Assembly (NCBI GenBank): GCA_003971905.1
Contig: RSEE01000037.1
Span: 496,001 to 560,000, forward strand
DNA: 64,000 nucleotides
From: Moniliella sp. 'wahieum'
Taxonomy: Eukaryota
Reading direction: 5' to 3'
Shown: positions 2,907 to 60,887 of the stretch, piece by piece
Layout: the number at the start of each line of letters is the position of its first letter
Numbering within the stretch: the stretch's first letter is position 1
The notes under the pieces: model-generated
What the model saw: only the letters and a program-made list of their open reading frames with translations
Told to the model about the DNA's origin: nothing
The model's database searches: none
Position numbers and translations under genes: made by a program

Positions 2907-3698
2907 TCCCGGGCCGGACCTGGGACGGATAGGTCGGCACACAGATACCGTTCCCCTGCAGCTTGGTAGACCCAGGGCCATGTGCCGCCTCCTTCTCCCC
3001 TCCCCACCCCCCCCTCACCCTCTGACGCTGCGCTCCTTTGTCTCCGCCTGGCGTCCGGTCCGGTCATGGTGGGACGAGAGCGATATGATACATGAAACGA
3101 AGGCGGCTCCATGGTGTCCTTGATCCACTTTTTCCATCTTGCGTTACTGCTGTGCCTTGTTCCCCTCTTTTCTCCCTTTGGTTCCTGCCTTGCCTCCTTT
3201 CTGTTCCTGTGGCCACTCGTCACTAGTCATTGCCGCAATCGATTCCCGTCGCTTCGCCTCCTGCGGAGGGACGCCCATGTCTCCTTGATCCCCTGGCATC
3301 CATCCGTTCTTTGCGGGGTCCCGTGTCGAGATGCATGCCACCCCTGGTTCCCTGGGGGCGTCCTGGAGCGCAGCACGGTAGGCCTCTCCAGGCTTCACCA
3401 TATCTATCGCACCCTCCTCCCCGCCCATTCGGGTCTGCTGACGCAGATGGAACCATGAATCTAACAATAGGGCACAAGCCAAGGTACTATTAGCTGAGAA
3501 AGCGTATGTTGGGTCCGAGGGATCGTGATCTGCTCATTTCTTAAGCGCAGGCCATGGCCTATTGCGGTAGCACCTACCTTAGCTTGCTTGCGATGCCACA
3601 CTTGGGCCCACCTATCACGCGCATTTGTTCTGTATAGCAAGAGATGACTGAGTATCCGTTGGTTGGTTGGGTTGCTTTTTTTTCCCGGGCCAAGCTTG

Positions 3699-5010
3699 CT
3701 ACGCGTCTCGGCCGAGCTTGTCGAGGGCAGCAGCGCCCTTTTCGTACCATTCTTCCCGGGTAACCCAGAAAGACTCGCGGTTCTTCATGATGTCCGCCAA
3801 GACGGCGCCGCCGAGGAAGACCATATGCTTGCGCCGCGGCGGGTCCTCGATCCGAATTTTGAATCCGGGCAGGCGCGAGGCGTCGCCACGCAGAACCCGG
3901 GTCAGGTACAGTTGCTTCATCTCCTTTTCCAGCCGGCTGGGCAAGCCTGGGTACATCGACGACCCGCCCGATAACACAATATGTTTGTACAGTTCCGCAC
4001 GGATGTCCATCGCCGCCGCCTGGATCGTATTGAACAACAGCTCGCCCATTCCGGGCTGTTCCACGTCCACCAGTTCCGGCTGGAACAGACATTCGGGCGC
4101 CTCGAATCGCTCCGAGCCTACTTTGATGATCCGTCCATCGGGAAGCTACCAAAAGAGGGTGGGTCAGCGCCAGCGGCTCCTACGTGGGGGCAAGGGCGTA
4201 CCTCATATTGCTCCACAAGTGTCGTCGTCTCCTCAGCCAGCTTCTTATCCACGGCCAAGTCGTAGCTAAACGGTTCAGGTCAGGTGGGGTGCGCCGAGGG
4301 AGAGAAAGGGGGAAGCGCCGGGACAAAGGAGGAGAGGGGGACGAACCTAACGTAGCTTAACTTCTCCTTGATTTCCCGCACCGTTTCAAAGTCGGCGGTA
4401 CGGTTAAAGGCGTACCCGCGCATGAGCAGCAGCTTGATCAGGTACCGTGTCACGTCCCTTCCGGCCACATCCAGACGCCTCGTGAGGTGGGGGAGAGCAA
4501 ACCCTTCGTACACGGGCACCACGTGGGTCACGCCATCGCCTGAATCGACAACAACGCCAGTCTGCAAGCCCTGGGCGTAGAGGGTAAGCACAGCCTGGAT
4601 CGCCACGTACACCCCATCAAACCCATACTCTTCAAACATGATCTGGCACATCTTTCCCGATTGCGTTTGGGGTTCATCGGGGGTTCGGTGAGCAGGATCT
4701 TGCGGCCTTGCGGATCGACCTTGAGCTTCTCGTCAAAGGTGTAGTTCCACACATGGCGCATATCGCCAAAATCCTTAACTACGCCGTGCTCCATGGGCTG
4801 GGTGACCTGGAGATAGTTGCGCACGGCCGCCGCCTCGTCGCCCACCATCACATCCTTGATCTCGACATCGAGGTCGTCGCGCTCCTCGACACGCAAGATG
4901 GGGCGGCCGACGATGGAGGGAAAGATGTGGGCGGGGAAGTTGCTGCCGGCATAGCCGGCCTTGACGAAGCCGGTGCCGTTGTCGACGACGAGCGGACGGT
5001 CGTCGGCCAT
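3699..5010 (-). CDS. ARP2: Actin-related protein 2 (Arp2/3 complex); 2 introns (~4146-4201, ~4266-4346)
   Basis: [71 protein letters not shown] and [19 protein letters not shown] are Arp2-specific. Confidence 0.96.
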
Positions 5011-5730
5011 GGGGGGCGAGGGGGCGATGGGGGTGGCGTAGCAGAGCAGGCGGCGGGGGGCCGAGCGTCGAGCGCAGCCACGTCAGCGGCAACGTGCGCG
5101 GGGGCAGTGTGGCTGCGCACCGCCGGCTGCTTATGTACGCCGTCGAGTTGCGCCCGATTATCGTATCTCGCAAGTCGCTAGCCACTCCAGACAGCCCTAT
5201 TGCCTCTTCTCATCACGATGGGACGCATCCAGCGCCCGCTGGCCGACGTCCTGGGGCCACCCGAACGCAGCCAAGAATCACGTCCACGCCCCCCCGTACG
5301 ACGGCCATATGATGCGCGTGATGTGCTTTTGCGGGGAGTGGGCCAGGCTCTCTCAAAGCCGTCGTCCATTCGTTGAGGATGGGGCCAGTCTCCTCTCGCA
5401 CTGGTGCCAGATGGTCTCGCTGCATGGACAACAGTACTGGAGAAGGTAAAAACAAGGTGCAAGAAGGCATTCCATCCTCTACGAACGACGCTCTCGGCGC
5501 CATAGCCCGCCAGGGCATTTCCAGACGGACTAGTTAGTACGGGTAAGCGCGGGCTGAGGGAGCCCGCACCCACCTAGTAGGCTTCTCCTGTCGGCCTCAC
5601 ATTCCCCTCTTGGCCCATCATGCAACACCGTACCGCAGCTACAACGCCGTACGTCCTGGCTACCACGGTGATTAGTTAGGACCATCTATCTGCCTTCCCT
5701 CCTCGGTAGGCCTGGTGCAAAGCAAATCCT

Positions 5731-57853: not shown

Positions 57854-59576
57854 ATGTCGGCCCTCCTCTGGCTCACCCTCGCCCTGGCGCTGGCTTTGAG
57901 GGGCAGCCATGCGCTGCCGTTTCCGTCTCCGTCTGGGCCTCTGTCGCCCCCGAGTCCACAGCCGCCTCTGGGCGCCCCTCCTCGTCCCCGCACCGCCCCC
58001 ACCCGCGCGCGCACTCTTAGCGCCCCGCAGGCCCCAACACACCCGCACCCCCTCGCCGGCAGCGCCCCCAGCGCCGTCGATGGCGCCTGCAGCCACATGC
58101 CCCACACCCGAACGCCCGCCACTCCCCCCCTGAAGCCCGCTCAGACACCACCTTTGTTACCGTCACCACCCACTGGGTCACCAGCACCCAGCACTTCCAC
58201 CCCACCCACATGACCCATATTCCCTCGGGCTGGGTCCCGCGCAAGCGCACTGCTTGGTTTCAGCGCAAGGCCATCTTCATCAGTTCTTCTTTCCTCGCCA
58301 TCTTCATTACCCTCGTCATTGGCGCTCTCGTCACCCTCTTTGACCGCGACCAGACCTGGGACGTTGGCAAGGGAGAGACGGTTGAGGATGCTGCCGAGCG
58401 TGTGTTGCGTTCCCGCCTCCAACGCGAACAGGACAAAGTGCAGCACGAACGTGAGAACCGTTCTCTTCGGCGTGAACGCTGGCTTCGTCTCCGCTCCCAC
58501 ACTGCAGCTTTGGCCTCCCGTCCGCTTCAGTTGGCACGGCGCGCAAGGCCTAAGAGGCGCGTCGTGCCGGACCCCCGCGGTCGTCCCCCCCAGGCTTCGT
58601 CCTCTTATTCTGGTTCGACGCGCAGTAATGGATCCAGCTCCAGTGACGACTCGGACTCTGACTGCAGCACATGTCCATCCAGCTCCGATTCCGAGCGTTC
58701 CCCCCGGCGCAAGATGTGCCTCCTCCGTTGCAGCCGCTTGGAGCACCTCTCACACCCGAAGAGCGAATATTGGCGCAACGCTACATCGTCCAGCGAATCG
58801 CCTCCTTGAAACGCAACTAGCCGAGTGGCAAGAGCTGCAGCAAGAAGCCTTCCGGCCCGAGGAATCGGAGCCTACAGCAGCGAGCTCCCCCACTGCCCCA
58901 GACTCACGTGGAGGAGACTCGCCATCGAGTCGAATGCACGCCTTCGTGCGCGCCAGGGTCCGCCCCCCCCGTCTACAGAGGGGCAGGATCTTTCCCCCCG
59001 GCCTACCTCCCTTCTATTTCCGTGTCCACCTCGGCATCTGCTGCCGCGAGTGGATCTGAACCCAAGCCGCCGGCTGTACCTACACCATCACCGAGTTTGC
59101 GCGCTCCCGTGGGCCAAGTGATGCAGGCCCATGTTGCAACAGACGACAAGCAGGTGCTTGCGGCCTTACGCGCCGCCAGCTCCTTCCCCTCTTGCACGGG
59201 GGAGAGTGACGCTGTAGTCCCCACTGCGCCGTGCTTGACTGACAACGTGGACCTCACTCTGCTTGCCCCGTCTACAGCGTCCACCGTAGCTCCAACAGAC
59301 AAGAAGGGCAAGGCGAACGAAATGTTGCCCCACCCCCCCTCTCGACTGGAGCTGTCCTTTGACCCTTTCCCACTACTGCCACCCGCCCTTCCCGCCTCCC
59401 CACCCAGTGCCGAGGAGGAAAAAACCCATTTGGCACTCATGCTCAGCGGGCCCAGTCGGCCTGTCCTGCCCACCGGGCAGTTGCCCACTCCTACTGCTCC
59501 ACCGCTTCCCTTTGACTATGGGCCCTTCACTCATGGTGAGGACCCCTCTTTCGTCCACTCGGAGGTGGAGAGTTAG
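57854..59576 (+). CDS. Uncharacterised type-I membrane protein (signal peptide, P/S/T-rich ectodomain, one TM, cytoplasmic PPxY and PTAP motifs); frameshifted
   Basis: MSALLWLTLALALALRGSHA-LP signal peptide; Pro/Ser/Thr-rich stretch; IPSGW..AIFISSSFLAIFITLVIGALVTLF TM; tail with PPVY, PPAY and two PTAP. Confidence 0.6.
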
Positions 59577-60887
59577 CTCCCAGTCCGGGCTCCAGGACCT
59601 TCCTTATCTATTCTCCCTTCAAGTTGCCTGAGTCGGACCCAGTTGTCCGAACGCAAGATCTGCCCCCCCCCGCCTCATCCATGTACTTACCATCCATGTA
59701 CCACATCCATGTACCGCATCCATGTACTTGTACCGCAACCTGCCTCCCCCCATCTCTATTGTGTATCCATCTCGCCTAGTAGGCCACCGGGACTTACCAG
59801 GAGGAATGTATGGGCGCGCGATGGCCAGGGAATCATCACACGATTGAACAGCGGGGGGGTCAGATAGATAGATCCATCGCCTTGAAAACAGCTACTGTAT
59901 ATATACGCCCTGCGAATTCCCATGTGATCTGTGTACATGGGGCGCTCAGAGGGTGACCAGTGAGAGGGTTCGCGTTCTATACAGCTCTCGCACCCAACCT
60001 CCTCTTCTCAGGCTACCGCCCCACCACCTCGCCGCGCTCGCGGGGTCGCAAGCCCGCCTTTTGATAAGCCCACATACCAGATGCGCACCTCACCCCTCAC
60101 AGTCTTCACTCCTCACCTGCGCCAATGCCACCCTCTTCCCTTCTTTGGTTCCAAGTGCACGAGCATCAGCCGCATACCCCGCCTCGCCCACGCACGTGCC
60201 ATGGGCTTGGAAGTGTGAAAGTGTGCGTGAAGACTCGGCCAACTGCGTACTCAGTACTTAGTTACTCATCAATCCTCCAGCCTCGTTCTCGTCGTTCTGG
60301 CGTGCGATGCACGAAACTATATGGCGGTGACCCTATCCAGGCTGCCTGGCGCGTGCGCATCCCTCTGTCAGGACTCCGACAGTACGGACTTTTAAAGCCT
60401 CACAAGCCAACAACCAAGAGCCAGGGAGGGGGACAGAAGGGAACGTGCCCGTATTTTACGCTCCACGATATAGTTGCGAGAGGCCCCACGCCAAAAACCA
60501 CTCCGTTCTCCCTTCTGACGTCTCATCGGGCAGTATAGGCTACTGGCTACTACCATACTACTAGTAGCACGTACGGCTGCTGCCTTCGCCGATAGTAGAG
60601 ATTGGCCACGCCCTTCGCGTTCGCGGTGGCCCGCGCCACGAACCAGCCACCCCAGCACGGGGATTGAGACATTGAGATCGCGGGCAACGGCTCGGAAGGT
60701 CAGGGCGGGGTTCGGTTGGTGCAGCAGGGTACAGCGTCGTCGTCGGGTTCTCTGAGATCTGAAGAAATCTGAAGTATACAGTCTCAGTGACGATGGGACA
60801 AGTATAGAATGGCTGTTCCAGGACAAGACGCGTATCAACCCCCCCCCCACACACACCGACCTGCGTGAACAAGTTCATTCCTTGAGC

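Follow-up and report, generated by a model that had tools for sequence, protein, structure and literature searches.

Palindrome-centred TGA repeats in the non-coding DNA of a basidiomycete: candidate excision footprints of a cut-and-paste transposon

The target duplication of Transib, and likewise of RAG, is 5 bp long. Hairpins on broken DNA link several rearranging systems: hAT, Transib, MULE and RAG leave hairpins on the flanking DNA, which are opened by host enzymes (PMC5499845). Artemis is described as opening hairpins mainly at +2, leaving a 4-nucleotide (nt) 3′ overhang (PMC2175297), and Ac/Ds footprints in Candida and yeast are described as P-nucleotide palindromes (PMC5873905). The hAT duplication is given as 8 bp, or 7 bp in hAT7, and among Basidiomycota, transposons with 7-bp duplications have been described in rusts (hAT7) and mushrooms (Kyakuja) (PMC12730594). 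Here, we analyse a 64-kb stretch of fungal DNA on contig RSEE01000037.1 (the window), whose non-coding parts are rich in sites composed of TGA, a 4-bp palindrome of free sequence and a second TGA in the same orientation. Judged from their sequence, these sites are, with a probability of about 0.6, excision footprints of a cut-and-paste DNA transposon with a 7-bp target duplication. What would be new here is best described as stereotyped P-nucleotide scars with a 7-bp, T(G/C)A-centred duplication, dense enough to read as a motif.

Enrichment, core symmetry and 7-bp register

Counted over both strands of the window, TGA-N4-TGA occurs 95 times, and its core is palindromic in 49 cases (52%), which form 44 loci after tandem arrays are merged. 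An initial annotation of the window had listed 38 positions, all of which carry TGA-(4-bp palindrome)-TGA on the strand given or on the opposite one; 11 further palindromic sites lie at 9139, 10580, 12489, 18184, 22954, 33307, 44795, 44802, 45438, 45894 and 57118. The same annotation had held that palindromic cores exceed background and that the symmetry of the core, rather than its sequence, is conserved, and both statements are borne out. Markov simulations predict 1.6 (order 1), 1.25 (order 3) or 4.2 (order 5) palindromic sites; none of the 60 runs per order exceeded 11, and 13 of the 16 possible 4-bp palindromes are in use. AROM loci of other fungi, drawn from metagenomes, provide a natural control: the 80 loci, amounting to 887,243 bases, contain 484 TGA-N4-TGA strings, of which 27 (5.6%) are palindromic, equivalent to 1.95 per 64 kb. 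The motif is strongly non-random and specific to the present lineage.

When spacers of 0-14 were compared, the palindrome excess was found at 4 only, the spacer length first noted. Among 32 trinucleotide pairs, only TGA/TCA (49/95) and TAA/TTA (5/11) stand out, the others being 0-16% palindromic. The inverted forms are not enriched in the window (palindromic cores in 1 of 4 TGA-N4-TCA and 1 of 12 TCA-N4-TGA), and no other tested combination of repeat length and palindrome length has a comparable effect. Non-palindromic TGA-N4-TGA stays near background, at 46 strings against 22-28 expected from simulations in which all cores were counted, and sequences that differ from the motif by one mismatch show only a modest excess.

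Coding DNA was defined by Pfam-supported open reading frames (ORFs) or long open frames, which replaced a codon-usage gene map that was too weak. Pfam-supported ORFs occupy 32% of the window, yet none of the 49 sites overlaps them (p = 9e-9), in agreement with the early impression that the sites lie outside coding DNA. Furthermore, 34 of the 49 fall in the 29% of the window that lacks an open frame of at least 150 codons. Clusters of 12 sites each are found in 12-14 kb and 44-46 kb, and of 5 each in 18-20 kb and 56-58 kb.

In 40 of 56 T(G/A)A-pal4-T(G/A)A loci (pal4, 4-bp palindrome), half of the core is identical to the two bases just outside one of the flanking TGAs. This flank copy lies on the right in 14 loci, on the left in 15 and on both sides in 11, and is absent from 16; by chance, either side would match in about 12%. 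A free core copied inverted from the adjoining bases points to a rejoining event, not to a selected site.

Maximal runs of period 7 peak at 12 bases (10 bases, 21 runs; 11, 13 runs; 12, 24 runs; 13, 6 runs). The 12-mers come in two mirror kinds, with 8 of the form TGA-ab-b′a′-TGA-ab and 8 of the form b′a′-TGA-ab-b′a′-TGA, and an extension of one base on each side (1+1) occurs once. The two mirror 12-mer classes are equal, at 27 + 27 matches against 0.05-0.1 in order-3 simulations. A search that makes no use of TGA, for any five bases (w5) followed by the inverse complement of their last 2 bases and by w5 again, returned 100 matches, of which 25 start with TGA, 24 with TCA and 7 with the next trinucleotide, the simulated figure for a TNA start being 0.25. 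Non-TGA centres of the inverse-complement 12-mer form are enriched as well (46 against 9.4 expected), and therefore a target preference fits, rather than a selected word.

The window contains 41 exact tandem duplications of 7 bp where 5.0 are expected, compared with 5 against 1.3 for period 8; 18 of the 41 have no T-N-A centre, and the duplicating process is not restricted to TGA. Examples of such duplications lie at 12444-12458, 14100-14114, 18762-18778, 19108-19124, 24369-24401 and 32690-32708. At four sites, two whole T(G/A)A-centred 7-mers stand around 2 inverse-complement bases, where 0 are expected. Tandem forms of 7-bp period, already remarked on in the initial annotation, are indeed present: eight loci are arrays of 2.3-3.7 units, most loci having 1.4-1.7 units. 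The runs end at fixed phases (start phases 0 and 5), and among short repeats in the non-coding DNA of the window, a period of 7 is the most frequent.

Excision model and competing explanations

The sites had earlier been ascribed either to a structure-read cis-element or to a hairpin or repeat-generating process. The second proposal is supported in its general sense, the flank copies in 40 of 56 loci marking a duplication or rejoining event, but the kind of hairpin differs: the pattern fits covalently closed hairpins on broken flanks, giving P nucleotides, combined with a 7-bp target duplication. The observations are sequence statistics, and from them we infer both the existence of an element and all four steps of the following scheme. 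Integration would use a 7-bp staggered cut with a strong preference for NN-T(G/C)A-NN, and less often T(A/T)A, so that the inserted copy has t1..t7 = x y T G A a b on either side. On excision, the transposase would seal both flanks as blunt hairpins without offset, comparable to RAG and Transib. A host nuclease of the Artemis/Pso2 type would then nick each hairpin 2 nt past its tip, leaving the left flank double-stranded up to t5 and the right flank from t3 onwards; each would bear a 4-nt, self-complementary 3′ overhang (left, a b b′ a′; right, y′ x′ x y). Finally, one overhang would be ligated directly to the recessed 5′ end across the break, where the opposite flank begins with its own TGA, while the remaining overhang is clipped and the gap filled. 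The product would be xy-TGA-abb′a′-TGA-ab or its mirror b′a′-TGA-abb′a′-TGA-zw, with a net gain of 7 bp, and arrays could arise through re-insertion or slippage.

Hairpins nicked at +2 would yield direct TGAs around any palindromic core with a spacer of exactly 4, and would also account for the flank copy on one side, the near-equal mirror classes (14 : 13) and the minor TAA class. Over the 40 loci, the presumed events split 14 : 13 : 13. Targets that are odd palindromes are over-represented (13/40 against about 1 in 16), presumably because both of their overhangs would be cohesive, and the presumed target NN-T(G/C)A-NN has no further base preference.

Other schemes were considered and rejected. 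A 3-bp duplication with leftover element ends would yield one or two cores, not 13, and, if combined with flank hairpins, would require spacers of TC or CA, which are not observed. Duplications of 5, 8 or 9 bp place the TGA asymmetrically between the two mirror classes. An offset hairpin as in Hermes/Ac was set aside, forms with a flipped adjacent base being rare, as was fold-back copying to a perfect palindrome, TGA-pal4-TCA being without enrichment.

In the Ac/Ds and hAT footprints, as in the window, both target copies are retained with palindromes of flank-inverse-complement sequence between them, an arrangement explained by flank hairpins, opening by a host nuclease and end joining (PMC5873905). 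However, hAT palindromes are odd and centred on the complement of the element-adjacent base, whereas those in the window are even; hAT footprints are heterogeneous as reported, whereas those in the window are nearly uniform; and among hAT duplication lengths the register of 7 fits hAT7 only. An even 2+2 palindrome corresponds to the blunt hairpin nicked 2 nt 3′ of its tip that is described for V(D)J recombination and Transib (PMC2175297, PMC5499845), and by this analogy the excision chemistry looks RAG- or Transib-like. The window sites differ from V(D)J and Transib products in being free of nibbling and untemplated addition, no RAG- or Transib-like gene was seen in the window, and the host is a fungus. 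Furthermore, the 5-bp Transib duplication is at odds with the register of 7, and 5 bp would put the TGA at opposite ends of the duplication in the two mirror classes.

hAT7 and Kyakuja (KDZ) share with the presumed element a cut-and-paste mode, 7-bp duplications and the phylum, but in the accessible text of their survey, whose supplement holds consensus sequences only, we saw neither T(G/C)A-centred targets nor footprints of this kind reported (PMC12730594), and the window contains no copy of either. In a two-species comparison of rice, excision of DNA transposons likewise fixes scars in non-coding DNA over evolution (PMC4423477). The initial statement that no described system matches was too strong, as hairpin-type excision footprints are well described (PMC5873905, PMC5499845), though not in the present form. 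We met no description of a pervasive footprint motif of this form in the accessible literature on fungal 7-bp duplications, hairpin footprints, Kyakuja and Artemis, although one may still be in print. We assign the presumed element to no named family. We tentatively suggest an undescribed, long-active cut-and-paste lineage in a deep-branching basidiomycete, possibly marked by a 7-bp duplication, a strict T(G/C)A target, RAG/Transib-like blunt hairpins and frequent, stereotyped 7-bp scars.

A number of observations weigh against an excision origin. Within the window, no element combines a 7-bp duplication with inverted ends: there are 0 exact candidates, and the best of 580 identical NNTNANN 7-mer pairs has 9/14 terminal matches. 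Indeed, a search of the window for resident elements with 3-, 5-, 7- or 8-bp duplications and inverted ends gave nothing credible, and a scan of 152 ORF translations revealed no transposase domain. hAT7, the best-documented 7-bp-duplication family, is no simple fit because the even palindrome mismatches Hermes/Ac chemistry; flipped-base forms amount to 3 + 1 + 3 (7) matches against 27 + 27 (54) for even palindromes. The outcome is near-uniform, other nick positions accounting for fewer than 3 sites each, whereas 128 Candida events gave 28 footprint types (PMC5873905) and only 8 of 94 rice excisions were perfect, with the two duplication copies left, most carrying deletions or filler (PMC4423477). 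In the window, a single stereotyped product is frequent enough to stand out as a motif with no comparison of genomes. The 16 of 56 loci without a 2-nt flank copy are a further difficulty, as motif decay (about 5%, a rough estimate) covers only about one third of them. Two 2-kb stretches reach a very high density of one site per 170 bp. When loci are merged by strand, 30 of 43 carry TGA on the + strand (p = 0.014), a bias partly matched by a local excess of free TGA over TCA (80:45 in 41.8-46.1 kb and 17:8 in 56.4-57.6 kb). Doubled-base cores (AATT, CCGG, GGCC, TTAA) are depleted, with 2 of 44 against 23% expected (p = 0.001), and 33 of 44 cores are supplied by six mixed dinucleotides (TG, CA, AG, CT, TC, GA). 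The depletion may be a bias of hairpin opening, but the excision model itself predicts neither it nor the strand bias.

The alternative that survives best, although we regard it as unlikely, is a transposon-independent process in which breaks or template switches at T(G/C)A are repaired via a short fold-back, the new strand copying 2-3 bases of the opposite strand and then re-copying TGA-ab, which adds 7 bp. Flank copy and palindrome prove only a hairpin or a strand switch and not the cause of the break, and such a process would suit both a window without a transposon and an outcome so uniform, unlike the usual end joining after excision (PMC4423477, PMC5873905). However, neither a 7-bp register nor a T(G/C)A centre is favoured by any known repair or replication process. 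A fixed 7-bp stagger, typical of integration, is instead indicated by the surplus of 7-bp tandem duplications (41 against 5) and by the four sites of 7+2+7 form; the mirror classes are equal, as two symmetric ends would give, and the pattern is lineage-specific, being low in the 80 other fungal loci.

Far less probable is a cis-regulatory or structure-read element, in which a protein or a DNA/RNA hairpin would read direct TGA repeats around a symmetric spacer in promoters. The restriction of the sites to non-coding DNA, their clustering upstream of genes (for example in 44-46 kb, ahead of a 2OG-oxygenase ORF) and the mild strand bias would all agree with such a role. Binding, however, gives no reason for a free core copied from the adjoining two bases in 40 of 56 loci, nor would it be expected that TGA-N4-TGA with non-palindromic cores stays near background or that the same duplication form recurs at other trinucleotides. 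Folding is weak too: the TGA-triloop mini-hairpin once proposed for the tandem forms needs two cores, present in only about 8 of 44 loci, and cannot be made from a single core, and although one array folds better than shuffles (z = −3.9), the others do not (z = 0.16, −1.3, −1.3 and −0.4). With the core copied from the flank and folding of this kind, the structure-read cis-element of the initial annotation is not sustained.

An artefact of an error-prone long-read assembly is about as improbable. The assembly does contain intron-less frameshifts, in the EPSP synthase domain of AROM and in an Hsp70-like gene, but the visible errors are single-base homopolymer indels, not 7-bp inverse-complement insertions; moreover, base-caller errors would not spare coding DNA as these sites do, and the flank-copy logic and the 14 : 13 symmetry are biological in character. 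Ordinary microsatellite-like slippage of 7-bp units, the least credible of all, could draw on the eight arrays and on the prevalence of period 7 in non-coding DNA, but most loci have fewer than 2 units (1.4-1.7), the runs end at fixed rather than random phases, and neither the palindromic core nor the TGA centre is accounted for; slippage probably only lengthens arrays after a first event.

Genes, assembly and coordinates

The window has a G+C content of 59.4% and carries fungal genes, which encode, besides the three listed in Table 1, a DEAD-box helicase, Kei1, ChAPs, an oxysterol-binding protein and an actin-like protein. The EPSP synthase part of AROM has about 57-61% identity to proteins of Ustilaginomycotina, Pucciniomycotina and Agaricomycotina alike. 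This near-equidistance from three basidiomycete subphyla indicates a poorly sampled lineage, and the source, judged from these proteins, is a basidiomycete of a sparsely sequenced, deep-branching lineage. The AROM protein search returned a single closer match, 88% identical, the SUR7 search gave 2 matches at 65% identity, and AROM relatives in a metagenome scan reached 60% identity at most at the protein level.

The EPSP synthase domain is frame-shifted at about 51150 (51140-51175), within a C run, and the Hsp70-like gene at about 55850 (55840-55870), in both cases with no room for an intron; a WSD-domain gene and the actin-like gene are also frame-shifted without intron room (601-809 and 4531-4732). 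Such intron-less frame changes in conserved genes imply that the assembly has homopolymer indel errors; the frameshifts are probably errors of this kind from long-read assembly, and the ORF calls are fragmented.

The 4.3-kb stretch that separates SUR7 from the 2OG-oxygenase gene (41784-46130) contains 15 of the 49 sites, 12 of them in 44-46 kb; its ORFs of at least 130 codons have no Pfam match, it has no Rfam match, and a TATA-like run lies at about 46105. An 18-base TGA/CATG string is common to the spacers at 13528-13557 and 57230-57259 (83% over 30 bases), which is probably due to independent events at one and the same palindromic target rather than to a dispersed repeat. The Rfam search of the whole window gave 0 matches, and no large repeats were found within it. 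Microsatellites are (AGTAGG) of about 20 units at 1402-1517, (CT) of 20 units at 17345-17383, (AGCAA) of about 12 units at 20252-20309 and (CAGA) of 10 units at 32227-32266.

Table 1. Motif loci and selected genes, with coordinates in the window
Feature	Position	Strand
TGA-CTAG-TGA, no flank copy	3219..3229	-
TGA-CATG-TGA plus CA, core half repeats right flank (12-mer)	9137..9148	-
TGA-ATAT-TGA, no flank copy	10580..10589	-
TAA-CGCG-TAA, left flank copy (minor TAA class)	11862..11873	-
TGA-TGCA-TGA, no flank copy	12038..12048	-
TGA-CATG-TGA, left flank copy	12083..12095	+
TAA-GTAC-TAA, right flank copy	12263..12277	-
TGA-CTAG-TAA, mixed centre, extended both sides	12294..12311	-
TGA-AGCT-TGA, no 2-nt flank copy (1+1)	12431..12442	+
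TGA-TTAA-TGA, left flank copy	12488..12500	-
TGA-AGCT-TGA, then 7+2+7 form (CTTGAAA, AG, CTTGAAA)	12671..12691	+
TGA-GATC-TGA, right flank copy	12825..12836	+
7+2+7 form, TAA centre (CGTAACG, CG, CGTAACG)	13060..13075	+
TAA-CTAG-TAA, extended both sides	13144..13159	-
TGA-TGCA-TGA, both sides (palindromic 7-mer duplicated)	13358..13371	+
TGA-AGCT-TGA, both sides	13489..13504	+
TGA-CATG-TGA, both sides	13528..13541	+
TAA-CATG-TAA, no flank copy	13580..13589	+
TGA-TCGA-TGA, both sides (2.4 units)	13662..13678	+
TGA-CGCG-TGA, right flank copy	13881..13892	-
TGA-AGCT-TGA, left flank copy	13936..13947	+
TGA-CTAG-TGA, left flank copy	14072..14083	+
TGA-GGCC-TGA, no flank copy	14234..14244	+
Array: three TGA, two GTAC cores, left flank copy	18174..18193	+
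TGA-ACGT-TGA, right flank copy	18387..18398	-
TGA-AGCT-TGA, left flank copy	18749..18760	+
TGA-TCGA-TGA, no flank copy	18803..18813	+
TGA-CGCG-TGA, right flank copy	20129..20140	+
TGA-CTAG-TGA, no flank copy	22906..22915	+
Two cores around common middle TGA: CTAG (left flank copy), then ATAT (none)	22953..22972	-
TGA-ATAT-TGA, no flank copy	33307..33316	-
TGA-GATC-TGA, right flank copy	33426..33437	-
TGA-TCGA-TGA, no flank copy	42051..42060	+
TGA-TGCA-TGA, right flank copy	42964..42976	-
TGA-TCGA-TGA, left flank copy	43899..43910	+
Array: four TGA, three TGCA cores, right flank copy at end, no left extension	44788..44813	+
TGA-TCGA-TGA, right flank copy	44904..44915	+
Decayed array: TGA-TCGA-TGA, one-substitution copy (GCGA core), third unit	45137..45159	-
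TGA-GATC-TGA, right flank copy	45318..45330	+
Array: three TGA, two AGCT cores, extended both sides	45428..45450	-
TGA-TGCA-TGA, right flank copy	45573..45584	+
TGA-TGCA-TGA, left flank copy	45799..45810	+
Array: three TGA, two CTAG cores, left flank copy	45884..45904	+
TAA-CTAG-TAA, left flank copy	46059..46074	+
7+2+7 form (CTTGATC, AG, CTTGATC)	47689..47704	+
TGA-GATC-TGA, right flank copy	57095..57107	+
TGA-GCGC-TGA, left flank copy	57116..57127	+
TGA-CGCG-TGA, both sides	57209..57222	+
TGA-CATG-TGA, both sides	57228..57243	+
TGA-TGCA-TGA-TGCA-TG, right extension of 6	57485..57500	+
TAA-GTAC-TGA, mixed centre, both sides	60247..60262	-
TGA-GATC-TGA, left flank copy	60751..60762	+
SUR7	40740-41783	minus
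Pentafunctional AROM	about 48.1-53 kb (48136-53000)	minus
Hsp70-like gene	54.5-56.4 kb	minus

Implications of an excision origin

If the sites are excision footprints, the window would hold a dense fossil record of transposition, with about 50 scars in 64 kb and no element left. The scars alone would reveal the stagger (7 bp), the T(G/C)A target, the blunt-hairpin ends, and the +2 nick with single-strand ligation, and the combination of RAG/Transib-like chemistry with a 7-bp duplication would make the transposase worth seeking. For motif hunters, they would be a warning that a motif whose core is symmetric but otherwise free may be the product of repair rather than a binding site. Short repeats and palindromes of fungal promoters could then derive in large part from excision scars. 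Should an undescribed transposon lineage indeed be responsible, its scars, at about 1 per 0.5 kb of non-coding DNA, would have supplied this fungus with a steady flow of new promoter sequence.

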